DNA of 64,000 nucleotides from positions 620,001-684,000 of the forward strand of contig AP026152.1 of NCBI GenBank assembly GCA_030295235.1, given 5' to 3'. The notes under the pieces are model-generated. The model saw only the letters and a program-made list of their open reading frames with translations, was not told the origin of the DNA and made no database searches. Source of the DNA: Fistulifera solaris (Eukaryota). Of this stretch, positions 9,471 through 46,816 are shown one piece after another. The number at the start of each line of letters is the position of its first letter. Position 1 is the stretch's first letter. Both the position numbers and the translations under genes were made by a program.

Positions 9471-9573
9471 ATTACAAAATGTGAGTGAATAGACCACACG
9501 TAACACTAAAAGAAGATGTTTGACGGTTGATTGTTGCTTCGGTCGCTGTGAAAGAGGAAACGAAGCAGAAACA

Positions 9574-10537
9574 TTTACCCGTAATTATAATTTTATTCGC
9601 AGTTGAATGACAATGGACGGATGCGAGAGATGCAAAACGGAACCCTTTGTTGTTCGGTTTATGATTCATGACAACTGTACCATCCAGTCTTGGTTGGCGT
9701 AAACCAACACTCGGTTGCATAGTGAAATTTCACGATGTCGATTTTTCTCTAATTTTCGACGTAAAAATAAAAAACTTTAACACAAGTAGTTCAGAATCAT
9801 CATTGCTGCGACTTTGTTTACCCGTAATTATAATTATATTCGCAGTTGAATGACAATGGACGGATGCGAGAGACGCAAAACGGAACCCTTTGTTGTTCGG
9901 TTTATGATTCATGACTACTGTACCATCCAGTCTTGGCTGGCGTAAACCAACACTCGGTTGCATAGTGAAATTTCACGATGTCGATTTTTCTCTAATTTTC
10001 GACGTAAAAATAAAAAACTTTAACACAAGTAGTTCAAAATCATCATTGCTGCGACTTTATTTACCCGTAATTATAATTATATTCGCAGTTGAATGACAAT
10101 GACAATGGACGGATTCGAGGGACGCAAAACGGAACCCTTTGTTGTTGGGTTTATGATTCATGACTACTGTACCATCCAGTCTTGGCTGGCGTAAACCAAC
10201 ACTCGGTTGCATAGTGAAATTTCACGATGTCGATTTTTCTCTAATTTTCGACGTGAGAATAAAAAACTCTAACACAGGTAGTTCAAAATCATCATTGCTG
10301 CGACTTTATTTACCCGTAATTATAATTATATTCGCAGTTGAATGACAATGGACGGATGCGAGAGACGCAAAACGGAACCCTTTGTTGTTCGGTTTATGAT
10401 TCATGACTACTGTACCATCCAGTCTTGGCTGGCGTAACCAACTCTCGGTTGCATAGTGAAATTTGTTGTTCGGTTCTCGGTTCATGACTACTTTACAATC
10501 CAGTCTTGGCTGGCGTAAACCAACACTCGGTTTCATA
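9574..10537. repeat. Tandem array of a 243-bp AT-rich unit (3.6 copies plus a diverged partial copy)
   Basis: Units start TTTACCCGTAATTATAATT at 9574, 9817, 10060 and 10309; the third unit carries a 6-bp GACAAT duplication. A partial copy spans 10463-10537. Confidence 0.97.
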
Positions 10538-10644
10538 AGGCTTAGTGGAAATTCGAGGTGGGCATGTTCATCGGTCAAGGCAGAGTAGACTAGACCTATA
10601 TCTACTGTTCGGGGTAAAATGATTTGATCTAGCAACGTTCAAAC

Positions 10645-10905
10645 ACATCACGCCAAGATTTTCTGGACAAGCAGTTATTTTTTGTATTGAAGAGGCAAGT
10701 GACATACCGCGCGTGAATCTAAGTGGTAAACCCGCCCGCCCAGATTATCAGGGCGGGCGCAGACACATCTCTTACAGAGTTTCTGTGGATGTAAAACTAA
10801 AACTTGCGCAAATATTCTGTGAACGTGAAAACATCCCACATCCTCATTTTCTGGAACGCGATAACATCCCAAGCGATGACACCGTTTTCAGATTTTCTGG
10901 ATACA
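10645..10905 (-). repeat. Degenerate copies of the 33-bp minisatellite (right flank of the 243-bp array)
   Basis: ACGTGAAAACATC at ~10823 is the exact reverse complement of GATGTTTTCACGT at ~61230. ATTTTCTGGA recurs at ~10658, ~10846 and ~10892. Confidence 0.55.
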
Positions 10906-11090
10906 TAAAAATAAGGGAGGTCAAAGAACGGCACATCATTACTCCATTACTGGTACTGTACTACTAGGGGGGTCTATGTATTTTTTATCGTCCGTGCCCC
11001 TACCCTGGTGTATTTTCACTCCAACAGATGGAAAACAGTATTGCCAGTTTGTCATTCATTCTAAACTCTCCCTGTATAAACTAGTTTCCT

Positions 11091-12888
11091 ATGAAGATAC
11101 GGAGGACTATTATCTTGCGACGGCAATTGACAAGCCGTTTCTTCTCGACCGAACGACAGCGTCGCCTTCCCGACGATGGCAAAGTGTTGCAACACTTTTT
11201 ATCCGATGCCCAAAGTCCGTCTACTGCTACAACTACATCATTGCAACCTTACCGTGGGACGTTTCATATCAAAACGTACGGATGTCAAATGAATGTTAAT
11301 GATACGGACATTGTACGGAGTGTTTTGTTTCAGGCGGGATGGCAGGAAACCTTGCAAGAACATGACGCCACCGTCTTATTGACCAATACATGTGCGATTC
11401 GGGAAAACGCGGAAACGAAAGTATGGGATCGCCTGAAACAGTTGCGAGCACTGCAACGCAAATCTTCTTACAATAGAAATGCCATTGTGGGGGTTCTTGG
11501 TTGCATGGCGGAACGCCTGCAACAGGATTTGCTACACGACAATTTGGCCGATTTAGTCGTCGGGCCCGATGCGTATCGTGATTTGCCTCGTTTGTTGAAT
11601 ACTTTACTCGATGAAGAAGAAGACCAGGCATTTAATGTACAACTCAGTTTGGAAGAGACGTATGCCGATATTCAACCCGTCCGACGATCGAAAGAGGATG
11701 TCAGTGCCTTTGTTTCCATTCAACGGGGATGTGCGAATCGATGTAGTTTCTGTATCGTACCCTTCACCAGAGGACACGAACGCAGTCGGCCGAAGCAGAG
11801 TATCTTAGACGAGATACAACAATTGCATTTTGAAGAAAAGGTTAAAGAAGTCACGTTGTTGGGACAAAATGTTAATTCCTATCATGATACCAGTGAAGCA
11901 GCGCGACTCGCACGTCCCCATCAGGATTATCGCATGTCGAATGAAGGTTTCCGCTCCCGAATTCGACGACAAGATGCCGGGTACTTTTTTGCCGATTTGT
12001 TGGCAGCCGTCAGTGACATTTCTCCCGAATTGCGGGTACGCTTCACATCACCGCATCCCAAAGATTATCCCACTACACTGTTGACACTCATGGCCGAACG
12101 GCCCAATATATGTCAACATCTGCACATGCCGGCGCAGTCGGGATCGACCAGTATGCTGCAACGCATGAAACGCGGCTATACCCGAGAGGCCTATTTGCAA
12201 TTGATGGATGATGTTCACACCATTCTACCCGATGTGGCCATTTCGTCCGATTTCATTGCCGGATTTTTGTGGAGAAACGGAAGAAGAACACGCGGATACG
12301 CTCTCCTTAATGGAACACGTCCGCTACGATCAGGCGTACATGTTTGCGTACAGTATGCGTGAAAAGACGCACGCGCATCGGACGATGCACGACAATGTAC
12401 CGGAGGATGTGAAACAACGGCGTCTCCGTGAAATCATTGATGTTTTTCATCGCACTGTGCAGGCGAAGAATGAAGAACGAGAAGTGGGTCGGCTTCGACT
12501 CGTTTTGGTGGAAGGTGAATCGAAGCGGAGTCAACCGGGCAATTTGCGTTGGCATGGACGGACCGATCAAAATAAGCGGTTGGTGTTTGCGGTGGCGGAG
12601 GATAGACAATGCTGGACTGATGATGATTTGTTTGGGCAAGCAGGATTGTTAAAGGATCAAATCCCGAAAGCGACAGGCCGCATAGTGCCGGGTGACTATG
12701 CTGTTGTGGAAGTGACCGAGGCGAAAGGTCACACCTTACGAGGCAAGCTATTGTGGAAAACCTCGCTCGCTCGGTTCGAGGCATCGGGGCTGTCCGGAAT
12801 CGATAGGGACAGCAAGGAGCGAGCTGCTTCCGTTACGCGTCAACTGAGTCTGCCAACGGAACCTTCCGCTAGGTTGGTGCAGTGTTAG
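11091..12888 (+). CDS. CDK5RAP1: MiaB-type tRNA methylthiotransferase (CDK5RAP1-like); frameshift in T-run ~12265
   Basis: UPF0004 motifs TYGCQMN, NTCAIRE and LGCMAE; radical SAM CxxxCxxC (GCANRCSFCIVP); SDFIAGF|CGETEE; C-terminal TRAM-like region. Confidence 0.93.
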
Positions 12889-13069
12889 AGCATAGCTGTT
12901 AGTAATGAGGACGACTGAGATACAGCTACGCAAGTCATGAATCATGATCTTCCCGAACCAGAGTGTCATTGAAATCTTAACGTTCTGCTGGGTTGTTAAG
13001 CCCCTGATGACGTTGAATACAAATGCATTCATAATTAGCAGCATTTGCGACACCGTCCTATTATATTTT

Positions 13070-13371
13070 ACTATAGGCCCAAAGTGTTGTCCGCCACGAT
13101 TGCATTTCAGTCATGAATCAACTCCATCGTTCCGAGCCAGCCTGTGATTGAAGGTGTGTTCGTTCTACTAGACTAATAAGCCATCGTTGCGTTAAGGCAA
13201 ATGTATTATGCTTGGCAGCATCGGCAAAATGTTCCTTGCTTTTCCAGGTCGGATAACATACCCTTGTGAAGCGATGTTTCCGTCTTTACTATACTCCAAA
13301 GTGTAGATTATTTACTATACTCTAAGTGTCTATTACTATTTGTCCGACTGGATTTTGTTGATAAGTCATGA
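13070..13371 (+). repeat. Cluster of the dispersed bipartite motif (copies 13070-13116, half copy 13288-13306, 13314-13371)
   Basis: ACTATAGGCCCAAAGTGTTG..CCACGATTGCATTTCAGTCATGA and ACTATACTCTAAGTGT..CGACTGGATTTTGTTGATAAGTCATGA. Confidence 0.7.
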
Positions 13372-13500
13372 ATGACATGCCACGTGACGAAAGACGTGAT
13401 GTTTTGATGTTGCGAGATAATGCGAGATCTCTTTATCCTTTCAAAAACACAAAACCAACAGAATAACACAAATCGAGAACCCATTGTTGCGTAAAGCATC

Positions 13501-14322
13501 ATGGTAGCCGCACTACCCGTTCTTTCTTGGATCGGCGCGGCGGTAATAGGCACCGCACTCTTTGACAAGTTCCTGAAACCCAAAGTGCCCTTTTACAAAT
13601 TACAAATCGATCGTTTGCCACGTTTGCGCTACCTGGATGGACAATGGAAGACGCAATTACCGACACGAGTCACACTGTTCAATGAAAATTATGTATCCAT
13701 TGATATTTATGCAGTTTCATTTGATCTATTTTATGCCGATTGGTGGGATGGCAGTTTACATCACCTCGCACGTGTCGAAGATCGCCATCAACAAGTCGCA
13801 ACAAAGGTTGACCTGCCCTGTACATCGGCTTCGACCGACTGTACTTCATCCTCAATAAAACAACCTCCCGTTTGGCAAATACAGCCGCGGTCAGACTTTG
13901 ACTTTCAAGACGACATGTATGTCGTTTTATCGGCTTCTCTGTATGAACTCCTGACATCCTACCTGTTCACCATGACATCCCAATTATGGAAAGGCAGTGG
14001 ACAGCTGGTATTACCTTCTACGGGTGTCGCACACTTGCAAGTCGGCAAGATTCCCGCGACTGTCGCTCTCCTTTGTGACAATGTCGTGAATACCTGGGCC
14101 ATGGCGGTCGAAGCCTTTGAGTGTCAGTTTCAAGACATTCAATTGGCGTGGGCCGATTTGGACGAGACGGCGGAAAAGACCATGCAGAAAGCATTGAATT
14201 GGCCTTTATTTCCAGAAACGGGAGGATTCTTCCTAAAGGAATGGACCACCACGACCGATGATCAACTGGATGCGTTTCGGATCGTCACGCTCGAAGATCC
14301 CGAAGTGGCGGTGCAATACTAA
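13501..14322 (+). CDS. Single-pass membrane protein, LEA_2/HIN1-like
   Basis: Intact 273-aa ORF. An N-terminal hydrophobic helix is followed by PKVP and a VTLFNENYVSIDIYAVSFDLFY (NxN..I) motif. Family call is by eye. Confidence 0.6.
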   Translation: MVAALPVLSWIGAAVIGTALFDKFLKPKVPFYKLQIDRLPRLRYLDGQWKTQLPTRVTLFNENYVSIDIYAVSFDLFYADWWDGSLHHLARVEDRHQQVATKVDLPCTSASTDCTSSSIKQPPVWQIQPRSDFDFQDDMYVVLSASLYELLTSYLFTMTSQLWKGSGQLVLPSTGVAHLQVGKIPATVALLCDNVVNTWAMAVEAFECQFQDIQLAWADLDETAEKTMQKALNWPLFPETGGFFLKEWTTTTDDQLDAFRIVTLEDPEVAVQY

Positions 14323-14457
14323 ACAGTCAATGGACCGGTATAACAAAAGGCCATGAACATAAGTCAAATAATTCTGTATGATAAGCTACCGCAAATAAAA
14401 TGGAACGTGCAACATGCTCTACTAGTTTCATTCATTAAATCGCGCTGCAACACTCAA

Positions 14458-15452
14458 TTAAAGCCCCGCCTCTTTCTTTAGCTTTTCAAACTCATCGTCC
14501 ACTGCCTTGTTGTCACTTTTTGCCGACGATGAACTCGATTCTTCCTTGGCAGGATTGAGCATGCCCTTCAATTTATTCAATTCATCATCGACACTAGACG
14601 CCGCCTCCAGCAGTTTGAATTGATCCTCCAACGACGACTTACTACCGGGAAGTGCCTTGGACATTTCCGACGAAATTTCAGCCGCGGCTTCCAACGCTTC
14701 GACTTTTTCTTCCATTCGTTTGAAAGCATCCATACTGGTCGAGCCCGTCAAACCCGTCAACATGTCGTTGACTTTCTGTGTCGACTGTGCCGTTCGCGCG
14801 CGTGCCACCATTTGTTCCTTCTTCGACTTCGCATCCAATATAGCACTCTCTAACGTTTGCATCCCTTCATATAGTTTATCGATACTGCTCGCCTGTGCAT
14901 CAATTTGTGACTGTAACGATGCCGCTTCGTCCAATTGTTGTTGTCGTCGCGTCAAGGCCTCCTTGGCCAATCCTTCGTTCGACGCCTTGAGGGCAAGTTG
15001 CGCTCGTTTGTACCAATCTTCCGCGACCGCGTCGCATTGTTCTTTTGTTTCAATAAACGACGTTGTGTGGCGGTGACTTCGGCGTACGATTGACGGACAC
15101 TGACCAAGTCTTTCTACAAAGGTGGGTTGAGGGTGGGTCGAACGTGTTGCGGATCGAACAATGAGACAGTTGCCTATGGACGTATAGGAAAGCCCTTGAT
15201 TCATTCGACTACACGTACCTGCATATCTTCTACAGCTTGCGTCATGATCTTTTCGGGATCTTCTAAATTTTTGAGAATATTGTTGAGGTTCGATTTGGCG
15301 ACACGAGTGAATCGATCAAACAAATTCATTTGCAAAGCTGTCGACGACGAAGGAACCGAGACACTTGGTCGAGATACGAAGCTACTGTGCGGAACCACAG
15401 TGAAAGCATTGGCGGTTGCCAACAAGAGCGTTGTCAATCCGAATCGCACCAT
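14458..15452 (-). CDS. VIPP1: Plastid VIPP1/IM30 (PspA family); intron 15114-15218, frameshift ~15045
   Basis: Signal peptide ending ANA-F, then MNLFDRFTRVAKSNLN..LEDPEKIMTQAVEDMQ|KDLVSVRQSYAEV, EDWYKRAQLAL and AFKRMEEKVEALEA. Confidence 0.92.
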
Positions 15453-16216
15453 TTTGAAAGAAGGGAGAACGGATGGGTATGGGTCGTGAAAGGTAAGTCG
15501 ATGGCGTGTAATAGAGAGCTATTTTATAAATCGTCAACAAGACTCTCTCCGGATGCTCTTCCGTGCGGCACAAGATAGAGTCAGATTCTATTGACGCGTG
15601 TTCGAAACAGACAAGAGTGTCAAGTCGTCCTTCCAATAATGGAAACGTTGCAATAACTACTCCGGAGTAACACACAATCGCGACAACGCGATGGCACGCG
15701 ATCGACGACGAGATTTTTTCAAGGCAAGGGGTGATGACGTGGAAGTCCGTGCCGCGTACGTCCGTAAAAAATTTTCGGACACTGCTTACTATCTCTGGAA
15801 GTGTAGTCTTGTGGATTTTCGCATTGAATAATCGAAACCGGACCGACAGTTGATTACAAAATGTATCGTACCGGCACCGCATTCTATCTGAGTGCTATCT
15901 CTACAGGAAGTTCAGTCGTGGTCTACGCAAATCAACATATTGATCCTATAGTGGGTATTGCAGCCTCCCTCATAAAGTACCGTCTACATTCCATCACTCC
16001 GAAAGATACTTTTGGCGTCGCATTATAGTTGCATTTGTTCCGGCGTTTCGATTTCTACGTGTTTTCACGTAGATCGAGTAAGCTTTTCCATTGACACCTC
16101 CCCGATCTTTTTTTCTCGTTCCTTTTGCATTATTGACAGGCTCTCATATTAGTTGCAGGAACTATTGTTCGCTCTGTTGCTTTCAACGACGAAGTCGCTC
16201 GCTCTGCCCTCTCAAC

Positions 16217-16750
16217 ATGATGTCCCCTTTTGCTCGATTTACGGCTACCAAAGTTGCATCCCGGTAAGTGCATGTGTAGAGAGATCTTCGTGAATCTGAT
16301 TTGCAAAGATGTGAATCATCGTTGTCGTTTGTCTTGCCCGTTCAAATTTATCCGGTGCATTCCTACACACATTCTTGTCATTGAAGTATTAGCTTGCTGC
16401 TACTTCATGATGCATGCTGTCATTATTTACTCATCATGCCTTTCCTCATATTTTTTTCTCCAGAGTCGTCGTCGCTACGCGCGCGCAAAGCACTTTGGTA
16501 GCCGTGCCCAAGAAAAACTTTTCAAAGGACTGGTTGAGTGACCCCTCGACGTATCCCTTGATTGCGATCATGTCGATTGCTGCCAGTGGGTGTGCGGGTT
16601 TCATGGCGTACAAGCTGACGTATTGTCCCGATGTTCGTATCACGAACAAGACCAAGGTAAGAGCGAAAACAATCAATGGTCTGTTACTTTTATATACACT
16701 TGTATTCACACTCGTTCTCTCCTCAGGGTAAAGTTCTTCGTGATTGGTAG
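16217..16750 (+). CDS. NDUFA4/B12D-family small mitochondrial membrane protein, copy 1; introns 16264-16463 and 16657-16726
   Basis: Spliced product MMSPFARFTATKVASR|VVVATRAQST..WLSDPSTYPLIAIMSIAASGCAGFMAYKLTYCPDVRITNKTK|GKVLRDW*. The YPL-TM-PDVR pattern is characteristic of the family. Confidence 0.85.
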
Positions 16751-17080
16751 GCATTGCCTGCAATTAACTACATCGTAAGGAAAAACTAGTCAATCAAGTT
16801 GAGTGCACTAATGTTTCTCTTTAATATGTCTATCAATGTGTGCTGTATCCACTAGTTTGGCTGTATTAGACTCCTTTCGTGTCGTGTGACTTGTTATTGA
16901 ACAAACAACTGGTTCTTTCAATGGGCTTGCATTTGGACTGTTAGATTAAGCCTCGAACAAAAGTGCATGAACTGAAACGTTTAGTAGACTTCTTGAATGC
17001 TCGACGCTTCCTTGGATGTTGAATGTCAACGGATGGAATAAGCGAAAGAATTTGTCATTGTTATACTTGTGTGCCTTCTT

Positions 17081-20000
17081 TTATACAGGTCCTCCTGTCT
17101 CGCTGAGAGCATTGCCTAGCACATCCAAATATTGTTTCAGGTCGTCGGCTCCGACACCAAGTGCTATTCGAACGGCATCATAAATTAAGAATTGGAGACT
17201 CACAAGGAGCATATAGAAAACGAGACGTAGAGGCAATCCCCGGAAAAAGCCCGCTGGACCATCCCGTTCCAATACCAGCTGACCGGCCGCCAATGGACTC
17301 ATATTCGACTTGGTCTTTTCATTTGACTGATCGTTACGTCGGCGGGGTTACTGACGATAGCTGCCACGATACCTCCCAAAATTCCACCCACTAAACTAAT
17401 TCCCAACGACAGGTTCAGCTCTTCTTTAGCAGCCGGAAAGACGTTGTACAAGTAGGTTGTGCTCAAGTCGAAAACGGTAAACTTGGCTGCAGCAAATGGG
17501 ATCTCTTTGGCCAACACAACTGGCACAGCAGAAAACAGAGAGAGAAATCCTTCTTCCGCCACCATTCTGTTGTAAACTGCCAAGATATTCGGAGCATAGT
17601 CTTTTTGAAAGACGGATCGGATCCTTACAGCCTCAAAGGGGCTGATGACGAAGGACCCAAGAAATGCTCCGACGGAAGCCGCGGTCAAAATGATTGGGAC
17701 TTCAAGCCCTGCACTCGCTGGACCCGCGAGCTCAAAAAGGAAACGTCTGGTATATTCGGTCAGTGAATATGATATGCCTCCCCATGTTAGAAAGCCCAAT
17801 AACGTCGGTACCCATCCAGTAAAAAAAGCCGGTCGGACCGGAGTCGGCAAGTACGCGCTTGAAGGCTTCGATAACATCCGGGTAGCTCTCCGGATCCGTT
17901 TGGACCTTGACATCCACATGAGAGCAAGAACAAAACATCTAAGCAAGGAGCTCGGGAAGTACATACCTTCGTTTTCACAACGTCAATCGGCGTTAAAGCG
18001 AGATGGACCCCTCCACAACAGATAGCTCCTGAAACAACAAACCGTAGGAATGATCCAGCTCCAAGCTGCATATCTCGCTCGATTGGTGATCTCCCTCGAG
18101 GACCAAAATCGGGTTCGAAGATGACTGACGTGTCTTTCACGAAACTTTTACCGGTGTCACTGTACTCGGGGTCAACAGCTAGAGTGTATCTGTTCAAGTC
18201 GGGTTCAAAAACTAAACCCACTCCACCAGGAAGAAGCTGAAGAATTTGTGTTGACGTTGATCTCGAGTTAGTTCCAAAGGATGGTAAGATATCTTCCAAG
18301 CTACTGTCAGCGGACCTGATGGTACGTGGCTTGTAGATTTCGGCGGCACTCGGATTCGGAATGGCCGAACCACTTTTCAAGATTTTTTGTTTAGCTTGAA
18401 CAAAGTCGTCCTCGGATTGAAAAGCACTAAAAACGTCTTTTTCTGCCACGGGATAGGCTAGGACTTGAACAGGATCATCGTAGCATCCTCTTCCAAAACA
18501 TCCACTGCTACCGCTACCTCGCCTAGCAGCGAAATTTATAATCGATTCCACGGAGTTGGGGTCACTTGGGTTTGGCATTTTCGCCCTCATCTCTTTGGTT
18601 GGTATTGATGTGGCAGGAAGCGGCTGATCTGGGGAGATCACTCGAGCCATGAGAGGATCGTTCATGTTGACACGCGCTGTAAGAGGCGGAGGTTCCACAT
18701 AAACCTCAATAGGTTTCTCGCACGCGTATCCTGTTCCGTTGTTTGTGATTAGAATATCAGAAACTTCATACTCCAACACAGCAGTAGCCGTAGCCGTCAC
18801 TCCCCCGTTTTGCACGGAAGTTTCGGGTGGCGCAATACAAATTCGAATGATTTCTTTTCAGTGTAACCAGAGCCAGGATTCAGTAGCTGAATTCGTTCGA
18901 TACGTCCTTTGTTGGGACCACCACGAAAAAGAAATGCTTTGGCTTCGGCTACTTCTCCTTGTTCTCCACTCTCAAACCGTAGACTAGCAGGTGGGGATAT
19001 TGTTACTTCAGGCGGCTTGGCATAGCCTGCACCCCTGTTGACGACGTCGATCCTCAAGATTTTCCCATTGGGCGATAGAATGGCTCGTCCAGTAGCCGTC
19101 TGGAAGGACTCTCCAGCGTCGGGTGGAGGAAACCGCACCTCGGGAGGACCATAACCAGGGGCGTAGCCGGACCCAGGATCCAAAATACGGACGGAGGAAA
19201 TACTGCCGTTGTCTATAGCTGCCAAAAGTTTGCTGATTTCATCGACTGGTTGGTTTTTCTCCATCAACGCAAACAAAAGCGCAATTTGTCGACGAGCCTC
19301 TTTGATTTCTCGTTCCATCCGCGCCTCCTCTTTTTCAGATAAAGGTGACAAGCCATCTTTCTCTCTGGATTTTCTCAGCGCGTCGGTCGACGGACAATAT
19401 CTTTCCAACAGAGATTGCAAAAGGCGACGAGGTCCGTCGTCTTTGCACGATATTCTTGCAAACCCACTTCGACACTCGCGGAGAATGCGCCAAACTGATT
19501 TAACCGAAATTTGTTGACCTCTTCTTCCGATGCTGTAATAGGAATTATTCTCGCTCGCTCGTACCACCACTTCTGACAGGCCTTGTCGAAGCAAAGAAGA
19601 AAACGACTCAAATATGTGACGAAACGGACATTGTAACCATCTTTTTCCACATCAAATACTGTCACTCCAGTTCTTTTGTTCACAGGGGTGGCTTCCCATT
19701 TTTCTAACGTTGCTGCATTCGCAGCGTCTGTCGCTCCGAGCACACTCGCTGCAGAAATTAGTGACGAGGCAAAGAATAGACGCCGTGATGCAGAGTCCTT
19801 GTTTTTAGGCTCGGGTTTGTTGGAAGAAAATTCCTGGTGGCTTTTAAAAGCATATCTGCAGCTTGAGTAAGCTGATTTGCTGAGAAGTCGTCCTTCTTAT
19901 CTTGCTGAATATCCTCGGTCAGTAACCTGGCTTTCATCGGTATCCATTTCGTCGCACAGCCCCCTCGCTTCATTCGGATCAGTATTCTTTCTTGAAACCT

Positions 20001-20105
20001 TCTTGTTTCGCTCATTGAAGAATGTATGATAGGATGAAGATGACTTTGAGCCGAAAGAAATGCCGTTGCTGATGAAAGAAGACAAAAAGTCATCAAGGAC
20101 AGCAT
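17081..20105 (-). CDS. Mitochondrial-carrier-family (phosphate-carrier-like) protein with long N-terminal extension, predicted plastid-targeted; intron 17906-17966; frameshifts ~19840, ~19445, ~18855, ~17822, ~17310
   Basis: Three carrier signatures: TPIDVVKTK|VQ, SPFEAVRIR and NPADVTISQM. PiC-like GAICCGGVHLAL and KEIPFAAAKF. N-terminus MLSLMTFCLLSSATA-FL. Confidence 0.82.
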
Positions 20106-20586
20106 GGCCAAGCGCACCCTATGAGTATCAGCAGGATTGACTTTACAGCCTGCCCTCAAATCCAGCCGCCGTCTCATGGTAGACTGTTACCCCTTTTCAA
20201 ACAATTGTTCACTGCTTGGAATGCCGACTTTCTCACAAACAAGTTCTTTTTGCGCTGCAGTCGTAGGTCTCTCGTCGAAGATCGGTGTTTATTGTGTTTT
20301 GCTTTCTTGCGTGTTGTGGCACTGTGCCGACGTAGCTGCAACGGTCACAAAACACGAGTCACACCTACAGTTTATTTGGGTATGGAATTGTTATTTAACG
20401 GTTGTTTACCGCTTTCGCTAATAAAATAACGCGATCGATTCGGTGTGACTACTTTATGCAGGATAGAAAATTACAGCCACGTGTCACGTCGTCACGCCAT
20501 TTTGGGCTAGAGTTTAGCTATGAAAGCAATTTAATCACCGTACTCCGTAGTCACCTGTATTTGATTCAAGACAAGTTCAAATCGAT

Positions 20587-22949: not shown

Positions 22950-23577
22950 AGAAAACGCACAATGCTTCTGGGTAAACGGATGTTACGAAATAAGCAGTAA
23001 TAATTCTGTGGTTGTAGATGAAATCATTAGCGACCAGTCAGTTCGTTCCGTGCAGCTCATGTTGTGTCGCTTCCTCGTATTTGATCGGCTTTTGCGACGA
23101 CTAGCTAGTTAGTTAGCACATGGAATACATAAGTCAGTCCCTCTTTTCACATCACGATGACTCGCAAAGTAAATGGTGATTGAGGTCTGCAGCATCAAGT
23201 GAAATGAAGTAGACTAGAGCGAATCATGTTGCATCGACACTCGTCTCCACGAATACAATAATTCTGGGATCTACGTCTATCCACCGTGGTGGAAATCGTA
23301 GAAAGACATTTTTATATCCCGGATTATACTCTTACAACCATCAACAGCTATCGTATTCGGCATCACAGTGTAAAATGTTGTTCGTCAAAGTTTTTACGCT
23401 AAATTTCATCTCTTTCTAAGGATCCCATTGTCTTCTTCATTTCAAACGGATGAATCATTTGATATCGTGTAGAATTTGGCAAGGAAAACTTGCCATGACA
23501 AAGCTTTTGTGAAGCAGTGATCCGGGACAAAAAGTAGTCAAGAAAAGGGTTGGGTGGTCGAACAATACTGTCACTTT

Positions 23578-24005
23578 CCAATCAGAGTCGATTATTGCTC
23601 TATGACATGCATTAGCGATGTAGGGCAATGTAATGTAGACATTGGTGTCCAAAAAGACGCGAAAAAGGGTGTGCTCGAAAATACACAATCTCCGGGTTTC
23701 CCCTCTGTCGATAAATTTCCCTACGAGAGCTACGTGAAAGTACGTACACATTCCAAGCGTTGCATCATTCGTTCCATCAACGTTTTCTTTCCAAGTCGAA
23801 AACAATTATTGCTTTTTGATACAAACCAAATACGGTGGAAAAAGAAACGTTGGCATCTGGCCACTTGAGAGGCAAGAATTGGTTGATGAGGGAAAACACA
23901 ATATCCGGGTATCCCTGCAGAGATAAATTTCCTACGACGGCTACGTAAATTACGCGTAGGCATCGGAAGCGTTGTAAATTTTTATTGTTTCATGTTTCAC
24001 TGTGT
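23578..24005 (+). repeat. Solo copy of the ~424-bp dimeric repeat, inverted relative to the array at 56.7-57.66 kb
   Basis: The reverse complement matches 56875-57300 along its whole length (e.g. CCGGGTTTCCCCTCTGTCGATAAATTTCCCTACGAG). Confidence 0.93.
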
Positions 24006-37425: not shown

Positions 37426-37584
37426 TATTTTGAGGATGAATGCTTTGCTTTCAATAGATACGTTTATAATTTGAGACGGTTTCGTTTGCCAGAGACAACA
37501 AATTATTAAGACGGAATGAAAAATTGCGGAGCAATGAAAACAACAAAAAAGGGCAAAGAGGTCGTCGGATGGTATGCCAGACTG

Positions 37585-37640
37585 ACTATAGGTCGAAAGT
37601 GTTGTCCCTTTTCTCCACGACTGGACTCATTCATGAGTCA
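37585..37640 (+). repeat. Solo copy of the dispersed bipartite motif, upstream of CWC22
   Basis: ACTATAGGTCGAAAGTGTTGTCC..CCACGACTGGACTCATTCATGAGTCA. Confidence 0.7.
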
Positions 37641-38041
37641 CAACTAGCAACTTAGCTGATGAAGGTATCCAACAGTCCGGTTCATTGCCTGATTTTTAGG
37701 AGAGGTGAACACAATACGACTCTTCAACAGCTATTGTTGACTACGTCGCTTGTCACTCAATAACGATTTATCTGCAATAATCATGTCATGAGCGATCAAT
37801 CTTTTCTACCGGCCTTGGGTGCTAGAGTAGGTGCACCTCTACGATCACGCAACTAAGACTACACAGCACTAGTGTATGTGTTTTAGTGCAGAGTAATGCG
37901 TCCTCGATGGAACGTTTCAACGTAGCATCGATGGTATGCCATTCAAATGGGGCTATGTATTGAAGTGTCGTAGAAAACAAAACGATCAAAATCAATTTAC
38001 TTACTAATACCAACGTAGAGATACAAGCGGAAAACTCCGTG

Positions 38042-38884
38042 TTACACAACCAAGGGTGCGGTGGGAGGATGGCCTGTTTTTGACAAGTACACGCCGGGAT
38101 AAGTCTCGTATTCTCCCGTATGACGCAACATTTGAGCCGTGGCGCAGAAAGAGCACCAAACGGCACAACAGAGATCTTCACACCCGATACAATGTTGCTG
38201 ATCAATTTGGTAGCGTGCTCGGACGTTTTGTCGCGTACGATACAGTGAATAGACCGACCATGCAGTGAATAAAAACCCGCCAATATTGCGTAATAGGGGA
38301 ATAGCGACAGGTTCTTCACCCGGAGGATACGGCCACGCCGCGAGTTCCAGCGCCATGGAATAACAGACATAACAGGTCACCAAAACGAGTACAATACGAA
38401 ATGCTTTCTGTGTTTGCATCAGAGACCCAGGTTCACCGAGCCACGTCAATTGCATTCGACTGATGACTTGTCCCATGGCAATTTGTGTGCACAGCAAGGA
38501 ACACCACGTCGAAGGATGACAAAATCCTACGTTAAGAAAGTCAAACAATCCATCTTTCCATGCCCCCGTGGGAGCTTTCAGTCGTTCGCCGCTGTAACTA
38601 GAAGGAAGAGGAACCAGGAATATTTGTCCCTCTTCGACACCTCCTCCGGGCTTTACAAAGAAAGGGAATCGCTTGGGTGAGTTGAGAAGTCAAGTGCAAT
38701 CTACTTCACTATCCACTCTACTCACCACTTCGCAATTGAAAGCTTTTCGACTGTCTCCGTTAATTTCTGCTTCGAAAGTATAGCCAGCCGGCAAATTCGC
38801 TGGCGCAATCAAATGGACCATCATCGGAAGTGCCCCTTCTTCCTGCGAAGGATTTAAAGGTTCGGATGTTGCTGCTTTCTTCAT
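38042..38884 (-). CDS. PLAC8-family Cys-rich membrane protein; intron 38651-38725
   Basis: APANLPAGYTFEA..EV|PGGGVEEGQIF, WKDGLFD, RQNVRARYQI and CEDLCCAVWCSFCATAQMLRH. Confidence 0.87.
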
Positions 38885-39387
38885 TGCTACTGCTTCTTGC
38901 GTTTCATGCGCGTGGCAGCTTGTCTCGTAATCGAAATGGAGAAATAATGAAGAAACAAGAAAACGGAAAGAACAGACCCGGCCCTGGTCAAAAGTAAATT
39001 ATTTATCGAATGAAGGGCGGCGGACTTTTCAATTTTGAATTATCAACGGAGATGTCAGTGTGAAGCTTGTGTACGGGTAGGCGCGCACAGAAAGCCAGCC
39101 GATCTTATCCCAACTTTCAGCTAGGTAGTTTCAAAAAATAGTCTGTCGCAATCTTCTAATCGGAAATTCGCAACTCGATTCTATTGATAGCCGATAGACC
39201 TAGTAGAGAGCTAGGCTAACTTATTGGAGGGGAAATCCTAGAAACTAGATTTTCTTCAGTTGAGTTTCAAACAGAAGCAACCAGCTTCGGTATTCGAAGC
39301 GAGCAACAATTGATCCTAGCTAGTCAATAAAAAATATGTCTTTAGATAGTCAAGAACAACAGATCAGACTCGTCTACTATTTTTTAT

Positions 39388-40402
39388 TTAGTTAGGAGGA
39401 TAGACAGGTCGACTCGGTAGCTGGGGCGGCGACATAGCTTGGGGCGGACCCGGCGGCGGAGCCGTCAGCCCCTGAGGCCAGGCGGTTTGGGGTGTCAATA
39501 CCTGGGGAATGATAGTGGGATAACGAGGATCGCTTCGTAATTGCCGTACGTCCGCAAAGTTGTCCACTACCACATCGCCGGGGCCCTCATCGTCGCTGTA
39601 TTCAAGGGGACGGCGACGACTTCGGTCAAGCCGTCTTCGACAAATTTGTTGTTGACAATACGGATCGTTCCTCCTCCGGGCATTTCGCAGATGAAATGGT
39701 ATGGTTGACTTCCACCACCACACTTTAGGTCAAACTCTTGTGGCGTGTTATTGGGTCCTTGCAATACTTGTACTTTCAAATTGAACGACTTTTTACCGAC
39801 ATAAAACGACCATATGACGAGCTGCACACTTTTCACACTGGCGTCAAACGACCACGTGCGAACCGCACCTCCACCTTTCGGTTTGATGTTACCTCCTTGC
39901 ACTTTCGTTTTGACGCTATTTTCCCACACCGCATCCGTGTAGGCGGCAATGGCCTTGTTCCGCTCCTTTCCTGCGGGCATGACACCCGCGTACATTGGGA
40001 ACTCCGGATCGAATGTGCTGACTTTGACAACTTGCGGGGGTACATTTTCTTGAACTTGAGTACAGCACGGAAAGGGAATTTAATTCCATCTTCCGAGTCA
40101 ATCACCATCGTGTGTGTCGTTCGCAAAGGTCCACACCAGAGTTCTACCTTGGCCTTGAGCGGACGGCCTTCGGTCGTAAAGTACAGTTGGCATCGCTCTA
40201 CACCAGGAGGCATCTGGAAGGTTCGAACCGTGTTTCCACCGTCAAGGCGTTGTAACGGCATGTCAGGAACTAATTCAAAGGGAATGGCTTGCAATGGCGA
40301 AGCCGATGTTTTTGTCGGAGTCGTCTGAATAAGAAAAGCGACTGCCCCCATCATATAGGAAGCAAAGACGCATATTCCGAAGACTTCGCGGGTAAATTTC
40401 AT
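39388..40402 (-). CDS. Uncharacterised protein with signal peptide, two internal homologous domains and a Pro-rich tail; frameshifts ~40045 and ~39600
   Basis: Three overlapping ORFs join into one. GGNTVRTFQM..VERCQL..VELWCGP aligns with GGGAVRTWSF..VKSVQL..VQVLQGP. Presequence ends AVA-F. Confidence 0.7.
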
Positions 40403-40939
40403 CTTGGAAGTTGATTGTATTATGAAAAAAGCAGTCTGTCGAGGATCGGATTCCGATGTGCAGCAAATAAACGAACTGTTTGTGATTGTGATGGATTTCA
40501 GTGATGGATTGGTGGATGAACCGATCCTTGATGAAAGTCCGTGCGTACTTTGTGAGCGTTGGAAACAAAATCCGAAGTTTTCTCGGTGGGCTTACTATAG
40601 GTTTGAGTGAACGATTGAGTAACGGGTGAGACATCAACATCCAATGCGCCAAATGACGTATGTTTTTCTCAGAAAAACGATCCATCACTGTAAAGTCGAT
40701 AAGTAGCGTGGTTGGCACTGTGACTTGTAATGTACCGAACACGGAACGGCGCTTGTGAACCTGGCTTCATCACTTTTTGAAACGAACGATCGATCTAGGG
40801 AGGTAATGGTAGTCTATAACTGCCTGGTAAAAGGGCACGCGTAACAAACTAGAGAGCCATGAGATAGGCTAGGAGGAAGAGGTGTATACCGTAGAAAGAA
40901 AGAAGCACCATTCATCGAAAACTATTGCTAATTATCGAT

Positions 40940-43276
40940 CTATCCATAATGAGCAACCATAGTTTCGATTTGTTCCAAAAGTTTGTGACATATCTCTCCG
41001 CACTGATCAGGAAAATTGCTAGAGGCTGTCTGAGCAAGCTCCGAAACGTTTGACGCTTGCATTGCCTTGAGGTTCTCGTGAATCGCAAGTTCGTAGAGAA
41101 CTTCGCACGCGTGTTGCTGAACCTCCACTTGGTGACTGTACAAGACCATTGCCAATACAATAGCGTCCAGTCCTTCTTCCTCGACGATGCGGACTTTGCA
41201 TGTCTGATCGATGGCGAGGTTCGTCAGTAAAGCGCAGCCCATCTCCTGAACAACAGCAGAGTTATCAACGTGCGCTTGCATGGCATTGATGATGGCAGCG
41301 ATTCCGCCTACGTCAACAATGAGTCGCGAATTCTTTTCTTGAAGCGCCAACGTAAAGAGAGCGCGGCAACACCATTCCAAAACACCCACAGCGTCAGCAT
41401 GGACCCACATGGCTCTCACGAGAACATCTACACCTCCGCACTCTCCAATCAACGCACAGCTACCGGGGATCCCCGCGAGGTTCGACAACGTCCAAGCCCC
41501 CGCCTCTTGTACACCAACAGCATCCCTATGAATTTGCAGAGCCGCAATGGTCGCATCAATACCCCCAATGTTCGTTATCTCAACCTTATTCTCGTCACAG
41601 TTGGCGGAAAGGTTTCGAAGTCCTCTCAAAGCCTTTTCTTGCAATTCGGAACTCGGTGAATGCATTACCATAGCGATGGTCAACGCATTACCGCCTCCAT
41701 CGTCCATGATCTTCCTTTTCATGGATGAAGGATGTGACGAAAGATTTGCTATGACAAGGCATCCTTTCATCAGAATGAGTATATCATCGCTGTGTTTGGT
41801 CATCGAATTCACCACTTGTCTCACAACGCCGCGTTCCACCATCAATTCAACATTCAACTGTAAGGCTGCAAGATTGGCTAACGCAGCTAGGGCTTGCTCC
41901 TGAAGGTCCGCATTTTCGATAAAAATTTCCAAATTGCGAAGCAAAATGTCGATAGCTCCAGCGTCCACAAAAGCGTGTTGATTTTGTGGTATTCCGGTCG
42001 CGTTCCATATCGCCCCGCAACCGTAGACTTGTAAATCCGCCGACGACGCGAACGCGGTCATTGATTCCACAATGACTTCGATTCCGCCAACGTGCGATAA
42101 GGTGTTGCTCTCCTCTTCTGAAAAATGTATTTGCGAAAGTTTCCGCAGTCCTGCGAATATCACGTTTGTATTACCTTCATAATGTCTCATAATGCTTAAA
42201 ATTCCGACAAAGTCGGATCCCATGTTTTCGATCTGATCGACACCCGCAGTATCGGATTCTTGATTCGACATAACCTCATGAATGGCGACAGGTACCTCTT
42301 CGTCGTAATGATGGCTTTCCGAATGTTGCTCTAGATCGGTCTCCACGTGTACATCCAGCATCGACTGGGCATAGGTGAAGGAAGTGGCGTCATCCGATAT
42401 TCCCGACCCGATAGATCGCGAACTTCCGACTCTGAGACTACGACTGCTTCGACTGTATCGCCCTCCGGAACCATCCGATGCAGCAGGAGAATGAGGAACG
42501 AACGCCCCACCTCGATTCAGTACTCGTTGCGCTTGTCGCTCCATAAAAAGCGCTTCCTCGGTCGCTATTTGATCCAGCTGCTCCTGACTCAGGTCCGAAG
42601 GCATCCACATGTCGATCTCATCCTGCGAATGACTGGGTTGGATGTTATGGATTTGATTGCGAAGATCGCTGGGTAGATGATGATGATGCGGCGGTCGAGA
42701 TGATTCTGTGCCGGCCCCAATTCCCACCGGCGTCGAAAACGCCCGAGGTACTCCTCGAACCGGGCCTCGCGTAATGAAGGACCCATCGGATTGCTCGTCT
42801 CCATTCATCCGAGCCGATGAACCGGAATGCGAGGAAACACTCTGCGAACTCGGAGATATCATAGGTCCGGACATTGTTTGGCGGATCACGCGATTGGCGG
42901 GTGATTGTGTACTGCGAAAGCTACTCGGCGCGGGGGCCGTCCGTGAGGTCGACCCAAACGAGCGCTCGGAACGTCCTAAATTCAGTTGCGACAGATTGAA
43001 TCGTTCCAAGTCTTCATCGGTGGCTCTTCGTGAAACTGCCGGAATATCTTCACCGTCGCTCGCACTATCTTTGGATGACAAAGGATGACAATTCAGGCAA
43101 CGTCCCTTGAGTACTAATCCGTGTTCGGTAATCGGTATGGATTTGAACAGCTTTTTCTGAAAGCACTTTCTTCCGCACGTAATACATTCACCTCGTTTAC
43201 GTCGTTGCTCTTCCAACTGATCGCGGCTCATGACGGAGCCTGTGGCGCTGTCGAACGCATTCCCAAAGCCATCCAT
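40940..43276 (-). CDS. ARM-repeat protein with N-terminal CxxC-CxxC motif, paralogue B
   Basis: Intact ORF with about 7 ARM repeats (GGIEVIVESM..LQVYGCGAIWN, VQEAGAWTLSNL, VQEMGCALLTNL). Start codon uncertain. Confidence 0.85.
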   Translation of the reverse strand: MDGFGNAFDSATGSVMSRDQLEEQRRKRGECITCGRKCFQKKLFKSIPITEHGLVLKGRCLNCHPLSSKDSASDGEDIPAVSRRATDEDLERFNLSQLNLGRSERSFGSTSRTAPAPSSFRSTQSPANRVIRQTMSGPMISPSSQSVSSHSGSSARMNGDEQSDGSFITRGPVRGVPRAFSTPVGIGAGTESSRPPHHHHLPSDLRNQIHNIQPSHSQDEIDMWMPSDLSQEQLDQIATEEALFMERQAQRVLNRGGAFVPHSPAASDGSGGRYSRSSRSLRVGSSRSIGSGISDDATSFTYAQSMLDVHVETDLEQHSESHHYDEEVPVAIHEVMSNQESDTAGVDQIENMGSDFVGILSIMRHYEGNTNVIFAGLRKLSQIHFSEEESNTLSHVGGIEVIVESMTAFASSADLQVYGCGAIWNATGIPQNQHAFVDAGAIDILLRNLEIFIENADLQEQALAALANLAALQLNVELMVERGVVRQVVNSMTKHSDDILILMKGCLVIANLSSHPSSMKRKIMDDGGGNALTIAMVMHSPSSELQEKALRGLRNLSANCDENKVEITNIGGIDATIAALQIHRDAVGVQEAGAWTLSNLAGIPGSCALIGECGGVDVLVRAMWVHADAVGVLEWCCRALFTLALQEKNSRLIVDVGGIAAIINAMQAHVDNSAVVQEMGCALLTNLAIDQTCKVRIVEEEGLDAIVLAMVLYSHQVEVQQHACEVLYELAIHENLKAMQASNVSELAQTASSNFPDQCGEICHKLLEQIETMVAHYG

Positions 43277-43906
43277 TCTTGCTGAAATATGCAATGCCAG
43301 TTTTCACAGACTTTTCCTCTCAATCAACCGCTACTGTAGTTTGTTGCTTCTGTCGCCTTTTCTGTTTCCTTTTGTTAAGTTTGCTTGGAATCAATGCAAG
43401 TCGATGTTCGAATAATGATCGCAGAGATAGGCACTCGCGGACTTGTGGCTGTTCCCATGGTCACAGCTGTGTGTCTCGGATCTTCGCTTCATGTCTCCCC
43501 CTCGCGCAGTGTAAGTTGACCTCCTCGATGGTCTTCCTACTGATTGTTCTATACTTCTGGGGGGAAACAGGACCAAAAGCGACGCCGTCGCACAGTTCGT
43601 CACGCGGTGCGACCGCGCGCGCCCGACACCCATTTGTACTCTTTTGTTGGATCATTCTTGTATTCATGTTAGCTAGTAAGTATCGTTACGACATGGTTTT
43701 AGGGCGATGTCTTTCACTGTGACTGAGATTTATGGGAGGAACCTGGGACTGCGTTCCAGACGAAAAACGAAATGACTGGAGCGAAACTCCATCAAACTTA
43801 TTACGGTATGCTTCACCAACACAACATAGAACGCCAATCCATGCTCTCACCGCCTTACTTTACGCTCATGCGAATAAAACAAATTACTAGTTCCTTATTG
43901 AGTCTA

Positions 43907-45581
43907 TTAGGGACACTTTCGGTTGACGATCGCCGATCCCCATTCTTCGTATTCTTGTTTCGAAATCCACATTTCGTGAAAGTTTCCCAAACTCCCTAAT
44001 ATACTTCCCCCCTAACCAACTTAGGATGGCCCGCTCGGACAAGGAAGGTGTCAGCAAGCGCACCCTCCAACCCGGTGTGTGAGCATGAATCAAGGATTCA
44101 ATTTGATCGCGCAAATAATCCGGGACAGCCTGTTCGGTGGGACCCAAACAGGAGCCTCCTCCGCCCAATACGACGTTTCCCAACAGCGCGGCTTGTTGTT
44201 CCCGGTCACAGCGGTACGCGGCGTCGCATACCATCGAAGCAAGTGGTGAGGCCGTCAACTGATCGTCCAAAAGTGTTTGTAAGTGTTTCGTGCAAGCGCG
44301 ATTCAGTTGTCGATTGGAAAAGAGCCGGCTGGATAGTTGTTTTTGTTTCTGTGTTGCTGGCTGTTTGCTGCGGCGCTTTGACAAGCCAACGGCGGCTTCC
44401 TCGGAGAATTTGTCATCCTTCTCTGACTTTTCTTCCTCATCGTCGTCATTGTCGTCATATTGCGACTTCTCAATGATTTTCTTCAAATTCGATCGACAAT
44501 CTTCCAAATGCATCTCCCGCAATTCGACCGTTGCCGGTGAATAACCCAACATCAAATCCGCCGCCGCAAAACGATCCACGGAGGGAACATCCAGGACGGT
44601 TCCGTCCGGCAGTGTGAAGGATTTGCTGGGCGCATGGAACGCCGTATCGGTAATGTTGACTGCGGCTCCCGCTCCAAACTCCCGACATTCCCTCGCCAAT
44701 TCCATCCGTGCCGCAAAATGGATCGATGGACGCCGTTGCGGACGCGGCAGGGACTGTCCTTCCGGATCGACATACTGCTGTACCGGTCGCACTTGATACA
44801 GAGGTCGAATACCATCGTGCGCAGCCGGTTGTTTCGTTTTGTACAAGGCATCCAGTCGTTCTAGTATCAATCGATCCATTGCATGAACACCCGTGGGAGA
44901 CCGACGGATCCCCTTGGTTTCGGCAAATCCCTCAAAGACGGGTGTCACGGTGGTTCCGGAATGTCCAATGTCTATCACCGTCGCCGTCGTGCGACCACAT
45001 CCGTAACACATCAAGACAGCATCCTTCGCGATGAACGCGGCGGGGACGTTCATTTCTTCCATTAAGCATTCGAGCGTTTGCTGTCGAATCGCGGGTGTAT
45101 TGTAGGATCGCTCAATCATCAAAAAAGGATGCTCTTCGATTTTGGCTTGTTGCAATGCCGTACTGTATCCATGGTGTAAGAAATCGCGGAGCAAATCAAA
45201 GCCATCCGCGCCTTGCGTTGAATCCGGGTCGTACATGAGTCCGGATGTAGGATCGATGGGATTGCAGGTTTCCCAATTTCCGTCATCAAATGTTTTGCGT
45301 TGAATCGGATGAGTATAAAAATCGTGACAAACTCCTTGAATTCTCCGTGACTTGTCTCCTTGACGCAACACAGCTACATTCTAATATATAAATGAGGGTT
45401 TTATACGATGATGAGTACTCCAACACGATTCAAAGAAAAATGCGAGAATGAACAGAAGGATACGCACCGACGGAAAGTAACTTCGCGGAGCGTCATCGCC
45501 AGCCCAGCCAATCTTGGTCGAATAATGACCAATCTCGGCAACTACAGCTCCTATATCATCACCTCCTGCAAAAGCTGCCAT
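43907..45581 (-). CDS. ARP4: Actin-related protein, ARP4-like; intron 45381-45467, frameshift in C-run ~44008
   Basis: [43 protein letters not shown] and [10 protein letters not shown]. Frame-corrected C-terminus [31 protein letters not shown]. Confidence 0.88.
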
Positions 45582-45768
45582 TGTCTTTGATTGTTGATGA
45601 TTCTGATGGATCTGCGATGAAAGAAAGGGATGAATTTTTGAATTTGGTTTTGTCAAAATGCGAGGCGCGGTTTCATCCGCAGTCCGCAGTTTGCGTTATA
45701 TGCTGCGCGCCGCTTGACGGTCGACGCAGGGGCCGCCAGAAAAACCAGAGCGACATAGAATCGCCAGT

Positions 45769-46816
45769 ACTATCATACCAAGTGTAGATGACTTTTTTCA
45801 CGACTGGATTTTTAGTCACGAGCTGAAACGAGTTTGTCTGGACTCGAATAACAATTCTCAGAATTATTCTTGTCCCTGATGAATGTGTGGTGTCTGCAAG
45901 GGGAAACCACCTTGGTGTCTGGAAAACATATCTATTTTTTATAATGAGCCGAGGCTGAGTGTCAGTGCGTGTGTTTGTCCAAGTGTGTGTCAAGGGAGGA
46001 ACTTTTTTTGCCGCTTTTTTCCTTTTTTTTCTTGGTCGAGTAGTCTTGCAAACCCGCCAAGCGCCAACACCGAAGTACCTGGTAAGCTTTACCACCTACG
46101 GGTTCACTCACTCTGTTTGTCTTTTCTTTTTTCCACGAAAAGCGAGCCCCCCGCTTCCGCTTGCGGGAAGGGCGAGAACGAAAAAACTTCGCAGGGGGCT
46201 AGTCTGCCGCAGGCGAAAACATACAATAGTAGATCCAAAGCTGTTTATGCTCTCACCTTGGAATTTCGCGCAATTGCGATTTCAGCCGGCAATGTCTTCG
46301 AGTCCTGACTTCATGTTTTTACTACGATGCAAACAGTAGGTTGTACAATCCACGACTGGATTTTAGTCATGAGACTGCATCAATCCTTTTGTACAAGCAG
46401 CCTGCAGCGCGAATTTTTTTCTCCTTTTCGCGTTTGATTAAAGTTTCATTACAATAATAGATGTAAAGCTAATTATGCTCACACCTTGGAATTTCGCGCA
46501 ATTGCGATTTCAGCCGGCAAGGTTCTCGAATCCTGACCTTTATGTTTTAACTATGACGCAAACAGTTGGTTGTACCGATCCACGACTGGATTTCTGTCAT
46601 GACGAGACACTGCATCAATCCTTTTGTACATGCAACCTGCAGCGCGAAAAAAAGCTCCCGCAGGCGGCTAGTCTTTAAATTTATAGAGTATTTACAAACA
46701 CGTTTATTGCGTTGCTTGATCAGTTTGCGATGCTAGTTGTTCCGGACCCTCGATGGAGTATTGACTATAGGCTCAAAGTGTTGGTTGTAGGGCAACACGA
46801 CTGGAACTCAGTCATG
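45769..46816 (+). repeat. Intergenic repeat region: 228-bp tandem duplication (46222-46448, 46450-46675) and four copies of the bipartite motif (45769, 46321, 46550, 46764)
   Basis: CACCTTGGAATTTCGCGCAATTGCGATTTCAGCCGGCAA occurs twice, 228 bp apart. CACGACTGGA occurs at ~45799, 46351, 46581 and 46796. Confidence 0.9.

Follow-up and report, generated by a model that had tools for sequence, protein, structure and literature searches.

A 58-bp intergenic motif in a dispersed and mobile family of ~220-bp tandem repeats of Fistulifera solaris

The window analysed in this work is a stretch of 64,000 nt from Fistulifera solaris (contig AP026152.1, positions 620,001 to 684,000; G000:C32:620001-684000), in a genome of 51.7 Mb and 62 contigs. 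Its intergenic DNA contains a short bipartite motif that ends in an imperfect palindrome and is found both as solo copies and inside tandem arrays, and the question raised by this locus is what the motif is and what reads it. The original prediction took it as the core of otherwise unrelated arrays and offered three explanations: the terminus of a rolling-circle (Helitron/HUH-like) element, the head of a tRNA-derived short interspersed element (SINE), or a composite protein-binding site. Sequence comparison indicates that the motif is the best-conserved portion of one diverged ~220-bp monomer family rather than the core of unrelated arrays. This family is an abundant, mobile, dispersed and non-autonomous tandem repeat, with a constraint in place that a plain dead transposon would not account for. 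We tentatively read the motif as the end, recognised by a protein, of an element that is non-autonomous, of the rolling-circle type and often inserted at copies of its own kind, an explanation that we hold possible and somewhat short of probable.

Three exact patterns of the motif gave 89, 140 and 126 matches in the genome, and each of the reversed patterns gave 0. A profile built on 24 non-redundant copies found 13 distinct hits with a score of at least 12 bits in 200 kb of DNA chosen regardless of the motif, and none in ~1 Mb of reversed or shuffled DNA, so the motif is non-random; the extrapolated genome total is ~3,000 copies (Poisson range about 1,800-5,700). Called coding DNA, which makes up 60% of the unselected sequence, holds 0 of 235 copies, in agreement with the intergenic location first proposed. 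All the copies listed in the original prediction were found at their positions, and those at 15907-15955 and 53491-53542, as well as a worn one at 12911-12940, had been overlooked.

The consensus of 136 dereplicated copies is TTTACTAT-(about 5)-CAAAGTGT-(14)-CACGACT-G(C/G)ATTTC-AGTCATGA, for a site of 58 bp. The spacing is nearly fixed, and not as loose as the 8-15 nt first described: the gap from AAGTGT to CACGACT is 14 nt in 38 of 49 measured copies. The core of the palindrome is conserved and asymmetric, with a length of 7 nt in 105 of the 124 copies, and the distance between ACTAT and the left arm is 30-33 nt in 94 of the 107. In sequence, the spacer is free to vary and sorts into subtypes. 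The right arm is duplicated as a 7-bp unit in 26 of 128 copies, versus 1% in the background (8 armless copies dropped).

The arms of the predicted 7-bp CACGACT/AGTCATG stem are present, but they do not pair fully, since 82 of 108 copies whose core is 7 nt long have a C.A mismatch at the third pair. When all eight pairs of the stem were considered in these 108 copies, we found one double change to another standard pair, with paired counts equal to the independent expectation, and no compensatory change was seen in a 20-copy alignment of the palindrome; the stem thus shows no covariation. Likewise, 17 full monomers gave no consensus RNA structure on either strand (the consensus energy was -0.7 and 0.0, with a mean z of -0.6). 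Because there is neither covariation nor consensus structure and the spacing is fixed, the motif is recognised as a sequence at fixed spacing, and nothing indicates that a hairpin or a folded RNA is under selection. The composite protein-binding site is thus an apt account of the way in which the motif is recognised, also in view of the constraint on its boxes described below; the protein may be either a transposase or a host factor.

Adjacent motifs are 210-239 bp apart in 77 of 94 cases, and 65 of 107 runs consist of a single motif. The DNA between motifs was grouped into 26 clusters, and 18 of these were homologous to the others by a leave-one-out profile, with scores of 19.9-72.5 bits against a best shuffle of 8.0. 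The boxes common to the monomer bodies include TTCCGAGC, GCAGC, TTTACGTCGAA and GTTGTCTTC. The remaining 8 clusters fail this test, the 243-bp and 228-bp units of the window included (0.6 bits; no hit); the 243-bp unit retains the family box TTTACGTCGA at the corresponding place. The statement that only the motif is shared was therefore right for these two units and wrong for the family, and the DNA between motifs, being mostly of a single monomer family, is not that of unrelated arrays and does not support the idea of 'captured DNA'. Spacers at least 85% alike were found on bodies 46-55% alike in 20 of 87 pairs (the median of all pairs being 51%). We do not claim a helical phasing of the monomer length (10.5 bp), for which p was 0.03 after dereplication at 90% and 0.11 at 80%. 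A common 'leader' 5' of some arrays proved to be a fragment of another repeat family. This other family lies no more than 300 bp from 7 of the 23 longer arrays, and the same is true of 12 of the 94 short runs and of 12 of the 156 control points.

Mobility was judged on homoeologous contigs. The pairs C1/C2, C3/C4, C13/C14 and C32/C33, the window being on C32, are 85-90% identical in blocks. A young 230-bp unit has 130 matching places (40 of 307 candidates scored) and none of them is on C2, C4, C14 or C33, the partners of C1, C3, C13 and C32. When five young arrays were compared with the homoeologous site, the motif was absent in three and present as a worn half-motif in the same gap in one; the fifth, at 1,035 kb of C13, terminates in a motif which is also present at the corresponding place of the homoeolog, where the upstream unit is a different one. 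Young arrays are missing from homoeologous chromosomes, therefore the family moves. In the window, the sites 13070/13343, 37585, 45769/46764 and 53498 are common to the C33 homoeolog, and the 243-bp array and the copies at 15.9 kb and 24.1 kb are not at the same place there. The repeat family is old, yet mobile. As a mobile-element terminus, the motif thus keeps the mobility originally proposed for it and loses the polarity and the captured DNA.

Runs mostly begin and finish with a motif. Precisely, among 49 runs of at least two motifs, the right boundary was at +16 to +35 in 27 and within the palindrome in 7. Of the left boundaries, 19 coincide with the left arm and 11 fall near ACTAT, and the other 19 are scattered between -50 and -206. 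Terminal pieces of the young unit end in 11 cases at unit positions 56-58, directly 3' of AGTCATGAAT, and of 111 hits of the monomer profile 68 have their end no further than ~10 nt from the right arm, while the start is close to ACTAT in 46. The sharper edge is hence the one directly after AGTCATGA, with ACTAT as a secondary left boundary, and not the CTATAG|T where a sharp boundary had been placed. The first motif of a run is often of another spacer subtype than the inner ones (L034, L038, L042, L116). At 14 candidate orthologous sites the mean identity was ~0.62 upstream, 0.91 in the palindrome and 0.72 downstream, values to be read knowing that five pairs were chosen by an exact palindrome, that one pairing was spurious and that unrelated DNA gives ~0.5-0.6.

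The constraint in place was measured on the nine orthologous pairs that had not been selected by an exact match on both sides. The boxes differ at 21 of 212 positions (9.9%) and the spacers at 37 of 129 (28.7%; P 1e-5), and the four-fold silent sites of 13 window genes at 709 of 3190 (22.2%; P 2e-6 against the boxes); the constraint is overstated by an unknown amount because both copies had to be detectable. Of all the results, it is chiefly this one that the reading as a plain dead transposon leaves unaccounted for, and it fits renewal by incoming copies or host selection.

Polarity and motif geometry together would be fitted best by a rolling-circle transposase, a preference we hold without reaching even confidence. 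In the mechanism that we propose, the unit would be a ~220-bp monomer made of a body, the TTTACGTCGA box and then TTTACTAT-N-CAAAGTGT, 14 nt and CACGACT-G(C/G)ATTTC-AGTCATGA. A transposase supplied in trans, most likely of the rolling-circle type (HUH, Helentron/Helitron2-like), would bind the boxes as DNA, cut at or just after the right arm and copy leftwards an upstream DNA of variable length, be it a fraction of one unit or several units taken from a circle or an array. The copy would then be joined to a target, often an existing motif or a short TCATGA-like sequence. The outcome would be one sharp and one variable end, short motif-bounded arrays, solo motifs and a renewal of the DNA upstream of old sites. 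The cut site, the targeting and the enzyme class are what we infer here; targeting of the own kind is suggested by the C13 array seated on an old motif, by the odd spacers of first motifs and by the mismatched spacer-body pairs. As to geometry, a resemblance is seen to the 3' ends of HINE elements, which have a box 38-60 bp and a palindrome 8-35 bp from the end (PMC4067079), and oyster HINEs form short dispersed arrays of 140-180-bp monomers (PMC7492417). Here, the first half of the motif is ~40-58 bp from the common boundary and the palindrome ends 0-5 bp from it.

Several observations weigh against a rolling-circle terminus. No subterminal inverted-repeat pair of at least 11 bp was common to six monomers at up to two mismatches, and right boundaries, inspected by eye, do not follow the T|T rule in that no T runs come after them; because both features fail, we did not file the family under HINE/Helitron2. 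An insensitive first look for RepHel with PF14214, made with no positive control, gave 0 candidates, and none of the searches made revealed a partner enzyme. A palindrome that keeps its mismatch with no covariation is unlike a selected hairpin, and the clustering of boundaries at it is partly a by-product of the motif being the best-conserved stretch. The array at 542 kb of C32 has its right boundary mid-way in an older monomer. Boxes conserved in place between subgenomes are unexpected for a neutral inserted copy. Finally, the check for empty sites gave the absence of arrays from homoeologs and no clean empty site among the homoeologous sites compared, because intergenic divergence is high.

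Rolling-circle elements have moved in this genome. A non-autonomous canonical Helitron at 45931-46671, which carries the 228-bp array of the window, is absent from the homoeolog, where the motifs corresponding to 45769 and 46764 sit 233 bp apart, and related elements interrupt arrays in L037, L043 and L046 at A|T. These canonical ends (A|TC...CTAG|T) are present and different from the motif, which argues against its being a Helitron end read as a hairpin followed by CTATAG|T. The minus-strand ATAG|T considered for such an end is no more than a secondary boundary, at a distance of ~32 nt from the hairpin, and genuine Helitron1 ends differ. We also observed insertions of this non-autonomous Helitron family at A|T in 220-bp monomers of four loci, two of them at one and the same position of the monomer. 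An open reading frame (ORF) of 389 aa in the L043 copy has no Pfam hit and has Helitron-like look-alikes, which we give as a lead only.

Among the other explanations, it is conceivable, though we consider it unlikely, that the palindrome is the core site of a tyrosine recombinase, with 8-bp arms, an asymmetric 7-bp spacer and the first half as an accessory site three helical turns off, and that ~220-bp circles enter and leave such sites through a Crypton-type enzyme. The conserved and asymmetric 7-nt core, the steady distance of ACTAT from the left arm, the palindrome with no covariation and the motif at both run ends, with 19 of 49 left and most right boundaries at the palindrome, would all agree with this. 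Recombinase sites consist of two 11-13-bp inverted repeats around 6-8 bp (PMC3212892); the core of the motif has such a length, and its arms pair over ~8 bp with a mismatch. Against this reading, three of five young arrays have no site in the homoeolog, left ends are spread, and a crossover in the core would leave the upstream half in place, yet this is often replaced. The array ends do not fall at TATGG or GTCTTC, which are short repeats described in Cryptons, and the monomer length has no clear 10.5-bp phasing after dereplication. No linked recombinase gene was found, PF00589 and PF16787 giving 0 candidates in insensitive first looks. A guessed Crypton junction pattern gave 35 sites versus 12 in the control and was rejected, its best palindrome being ordinary intergenic DNA.

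It is equally doubtful that the host keeps the motif as a composite protein-binding site for transcription, chromatin or replication in promoter-side gaps, with the arrays as local duplications or passengers. The fixed spacing and the low divergence of the boxes speak for it, the latter inflated by the need to detect both copies, and so does the position of the runs, 100 of 105 being in gaps with at least one gene start versus 175 of 214 control gaps, a control by count with no length weighting. The distance of the motif from gene starts varies from 21 to 3,035 bp, and 79 of the 105 runs face a gene start and 70 have one at their back; for the 33 in unselected DNA these numbers are 23 and 26. 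Such a variable distance and near-even orientation argue against a directional promoter. Furthermore, several sites are confined to one subgenome and the neighbour genes are unrelated to each other: the 128 ORFs beside motif sites were unrelated host genes or unassigned, and none had a transposase domain. Runs X3 and X4, guessed to be RNA, cover a neighbour gene and not an array, and are no evidence either way.

We rate a further reading as rather unlikely. The ~220-bp non-coding units would be self-targeting mini-cassettes with a lox-like site and an accessory box, added, swapped and removed at ~3,000 chromosomal copies of that site by a recombinase or nickase acting in trans, and their sites, kept by renewal or host selection, would amount to a promoter-proximal network of recombination sites.

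Improbable, in our judgement, is an RNA-copied element (retrozyme-like, Penelope-like or a SINE with the tail of a long interspersed element), in which a reverse transcriptase would read the motif as the 3' end of the element and produce tandem arrays and copies truncated at the 5' end. Sharp 3' ends and variable 5' ends would agree with it, as would the repeated 7-bp right arm, which is like template slippage, and the retrozyme-like dispersal as monomers, dimers and short arrays in intergenic DNA, known for non-LTR (LTR, long terminal repeat) retrozymes (bioRxiv 10.64898/2026.07.22.740005). Against it, the 17 monomers have no conserved RNA structure on either strand, and no ribozyme match was found in Rfam; HDV-like, twister and hammerhead forms were discarded, as the same monomers have no consensus structure. 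A search with RVT_1 gave 28 matches, with no motif end where this could be checked and an array within the locus only at L137, 64 bp from the 5' break and on the opposite strand. Nine non-LTR loci were extended to 10 kb, and in no case was the motif at the end; seven 3' ends scored at background, and a likeness of the CRE-like 3' untranslated region (UTR) to the motif also scored at background. No poly(A) was found, and no target duplication was seen by eye. A tRNA-derived SINE head is very improbable: the superficial D-arm likeness of copy 46764, seen in the original prediction only, depends on non-conserved spacer letters, ARAGORN and Rfam gave 0 in the window, monomers of five loci had no match in an E-value search, and a B-box occurs in 8 of 272 copy-strands versus 6 shuffled. 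A TRIM or small LTR element is recognised by TG...CA repeats, a primer site, a polypurine tract and a 5-bp target duplication, and none of these was seen by eye on either strand.

With regard to non-LTR elements, 5'-truncated CRE-like pieces were seen directly after a 228-type array (L024:1780-2100) and 64 bp from another array (L147:4990-5060), and L147:6730-7085, L150:4396-4750, L148 and L154 are 3' ends of CRE-like elements. Three centromere/autonomously replicating sequence motifs have been published, and none of them is the motif described here (bioRxiv 10.1101/2021.11.10.468027). By eye, they resemble the ORF end and 3' UTR of CRE-like elements, with a GGAAAATTCAGTCGAATGTCAA box common to both, and on this sequence likeness they may be retrotransposon tails.

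The copies of the window are collected in Table 1. A dimer related to the 243-bp array, 82-85% identical, lies at ~1,220.8 kb of G000:C13 (L157), and copies 87% identical to the 228-bp array are found in L024 and L030.

Table 1. Motif copies and related features of the window (positions from its first letter)
Positions	Strand	Feature	Remarks
9573..10537	-	Array of the 243-bp subfamily, 3.7 units and an 81-bp deleted unit	Five motif copies, core widened to 12 nt; not in homoeolog
9663-9727, 9906-9970, 10155-10219, 10398-10461, 10479-10537	-	Motif copies of the 243-bp array	
12911..12940	+	Worn motif: left-arm remnant and AGTCATGA, then 7-bp repeat	
13066..13119	+	Motif with 7-nt spacer deletion; common to homoeolog	
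13120..13287	+	Monomer body, family homologue	Leave-one-out 25.7 bits, best shuffle -0.7
13288..13373	+	First half doubled (13288, 13314) and palindrome with 14-nt core; palindrome also in homoeolog	
15907..15955	-	Motif lacking the right arm; not in homoeolog	31.7 bits
24054..24081	-	Palindrome alone, right arm duplicated (7 bp)	
37581..37639	+	Solo motif, also in homoeolog	
45769..45823	+	Old pair, first motif; spacing of the pair in homoeolog 233-234 bp	
45931..46671	+	Non-autonomous canonical Helitron, a separate element within a monomer	A|TC...CTAG|T, inner CTAG at 46199
46222..46648	+	Array of the 228-bp subfamily within the Helitron	Motifs 46319-46373, 46546-46602
46760..46816	+	Second motif of the old pair, the 'tRNA-like' copy	46.5 bits; no tRNA or Rfam match
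53491..53542	-	Worn copy; in homoeolog the second of a 218-bp pair	

Other repeats were observed along with the motif. A second abundant family, of CCAGA(A/T)nTCTGG palindromes, forms ladders that often adjoin 220-bp arrays; it is found in the window at 9268-9313, 10622-10855, 58774-59246 and 60933-61258, and also in L004, L041, L044, L046 and L151. In L008 and L011, near 1,440-1,520, two motif copies stand head to head at their ACTAT ends, one with the middle deleted. In L033 and L034 a short insert containing CTCCGT splits the TA of ACTATA, which we take to resemble a cut-and-paste footprint. A 1.06-kb head-to-tail repeat (L062-L067; G000:C1 at ~1,575 kb and 2,643 kb, also C5 and C36) is joined at GGGGAG|TG, which resembles a purine tract followed by an LTR, and holds a perfect TCATGACT-7-AGTCATGA palindrome whose core differs from that of the motif. 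In the window, a 424-bp tandem unit at 56718-57658 recurs inverted at 23571-24004, 33 kb away, with 86% identity. In L057 (G000:C33, ~685.1-686.9 kb) the homoeolog has a segment of 1.8 kb that carries an additional motif and a probable gene; this segment is absent from window 53568-53604, beside the 53498 motif copy.

We found no description of this repeat family in the literature, Repbase and Dfam being outside the comparison; unnamed repeats between tandem genes appear in Fig. S16 of bioRxiv 10.1101/2021.11.10.468027 and may bear on its novelty. There were 0 matches in Rfam, viral contigs and prokaryotic genomes. Two flank matches in plasmids were rejected as chance, and so were four in metagenomes, the best two of 16-19 bits and with no right arm. 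If the rolling-circle reading is true, this would be one more undescribed non-autonomous repeat family, notable for failing Helentron hallmarks and for a terminal motif in every monomer. Less ordinary are boxes conserved at orthologous sites across two diverged subgenomes and new arrays that often land on old sites. Were a specific enzyme and its site to be identified, the two would constitute a native system of targeted integration in a diatom and account for the birth and renewal of dispersed short arrays.

As regards known systems, Helitron1 non-autonomous elements are alike in that rolling-circle elements can form tandem arrays, and differ in that they begin with TC, end with a hairpin and CTRR and insert at A|T, whereas the ends of the motif differ from these. 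Replitrons, which belong to the HUH elements, have a hairpin at the right end and direct repeats at either end, but these repeats are short, 6 bp in Replitron-1, and none was found in diatoms (PMC10288648). Non-LTR retrozymes also have one conserved module per unit, unlike which no hammerhead or other RNA structure occurs here. Crypton (CryptonS) and lox-like sites share inverted arms around a 7-bp asymmetric core (PMC3212892); the integration of circles would yield site-bounded arrays, and TATGG occurs in the first box of the young subfamily. Cryptons, however, are bounded by direct repeats of 4-6 bp (often TATGG in CryptonS), whereas the arrays here are bounded by a 58-bp motif with 8-bp arms. 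From the minisatellite arrays of HINE/DINE-1 and Helitron2/HLE2 the family differs in having the terminal motif in every monomer rather than flanking a central array, with no subterminal inverted-repeat pair, T|T rule or palindrome covariation and no RepHel partner found. It is like them in being non-coding, dispersed among genes and organised in short arrays of 140-250-bp monomers (PMC4067079, PMC7492417, PMC11417382, PMC12001565), with no target duplication seen and with a conserved box that precedes a short palindrome and lies ~40-60 bp from a sharp end.

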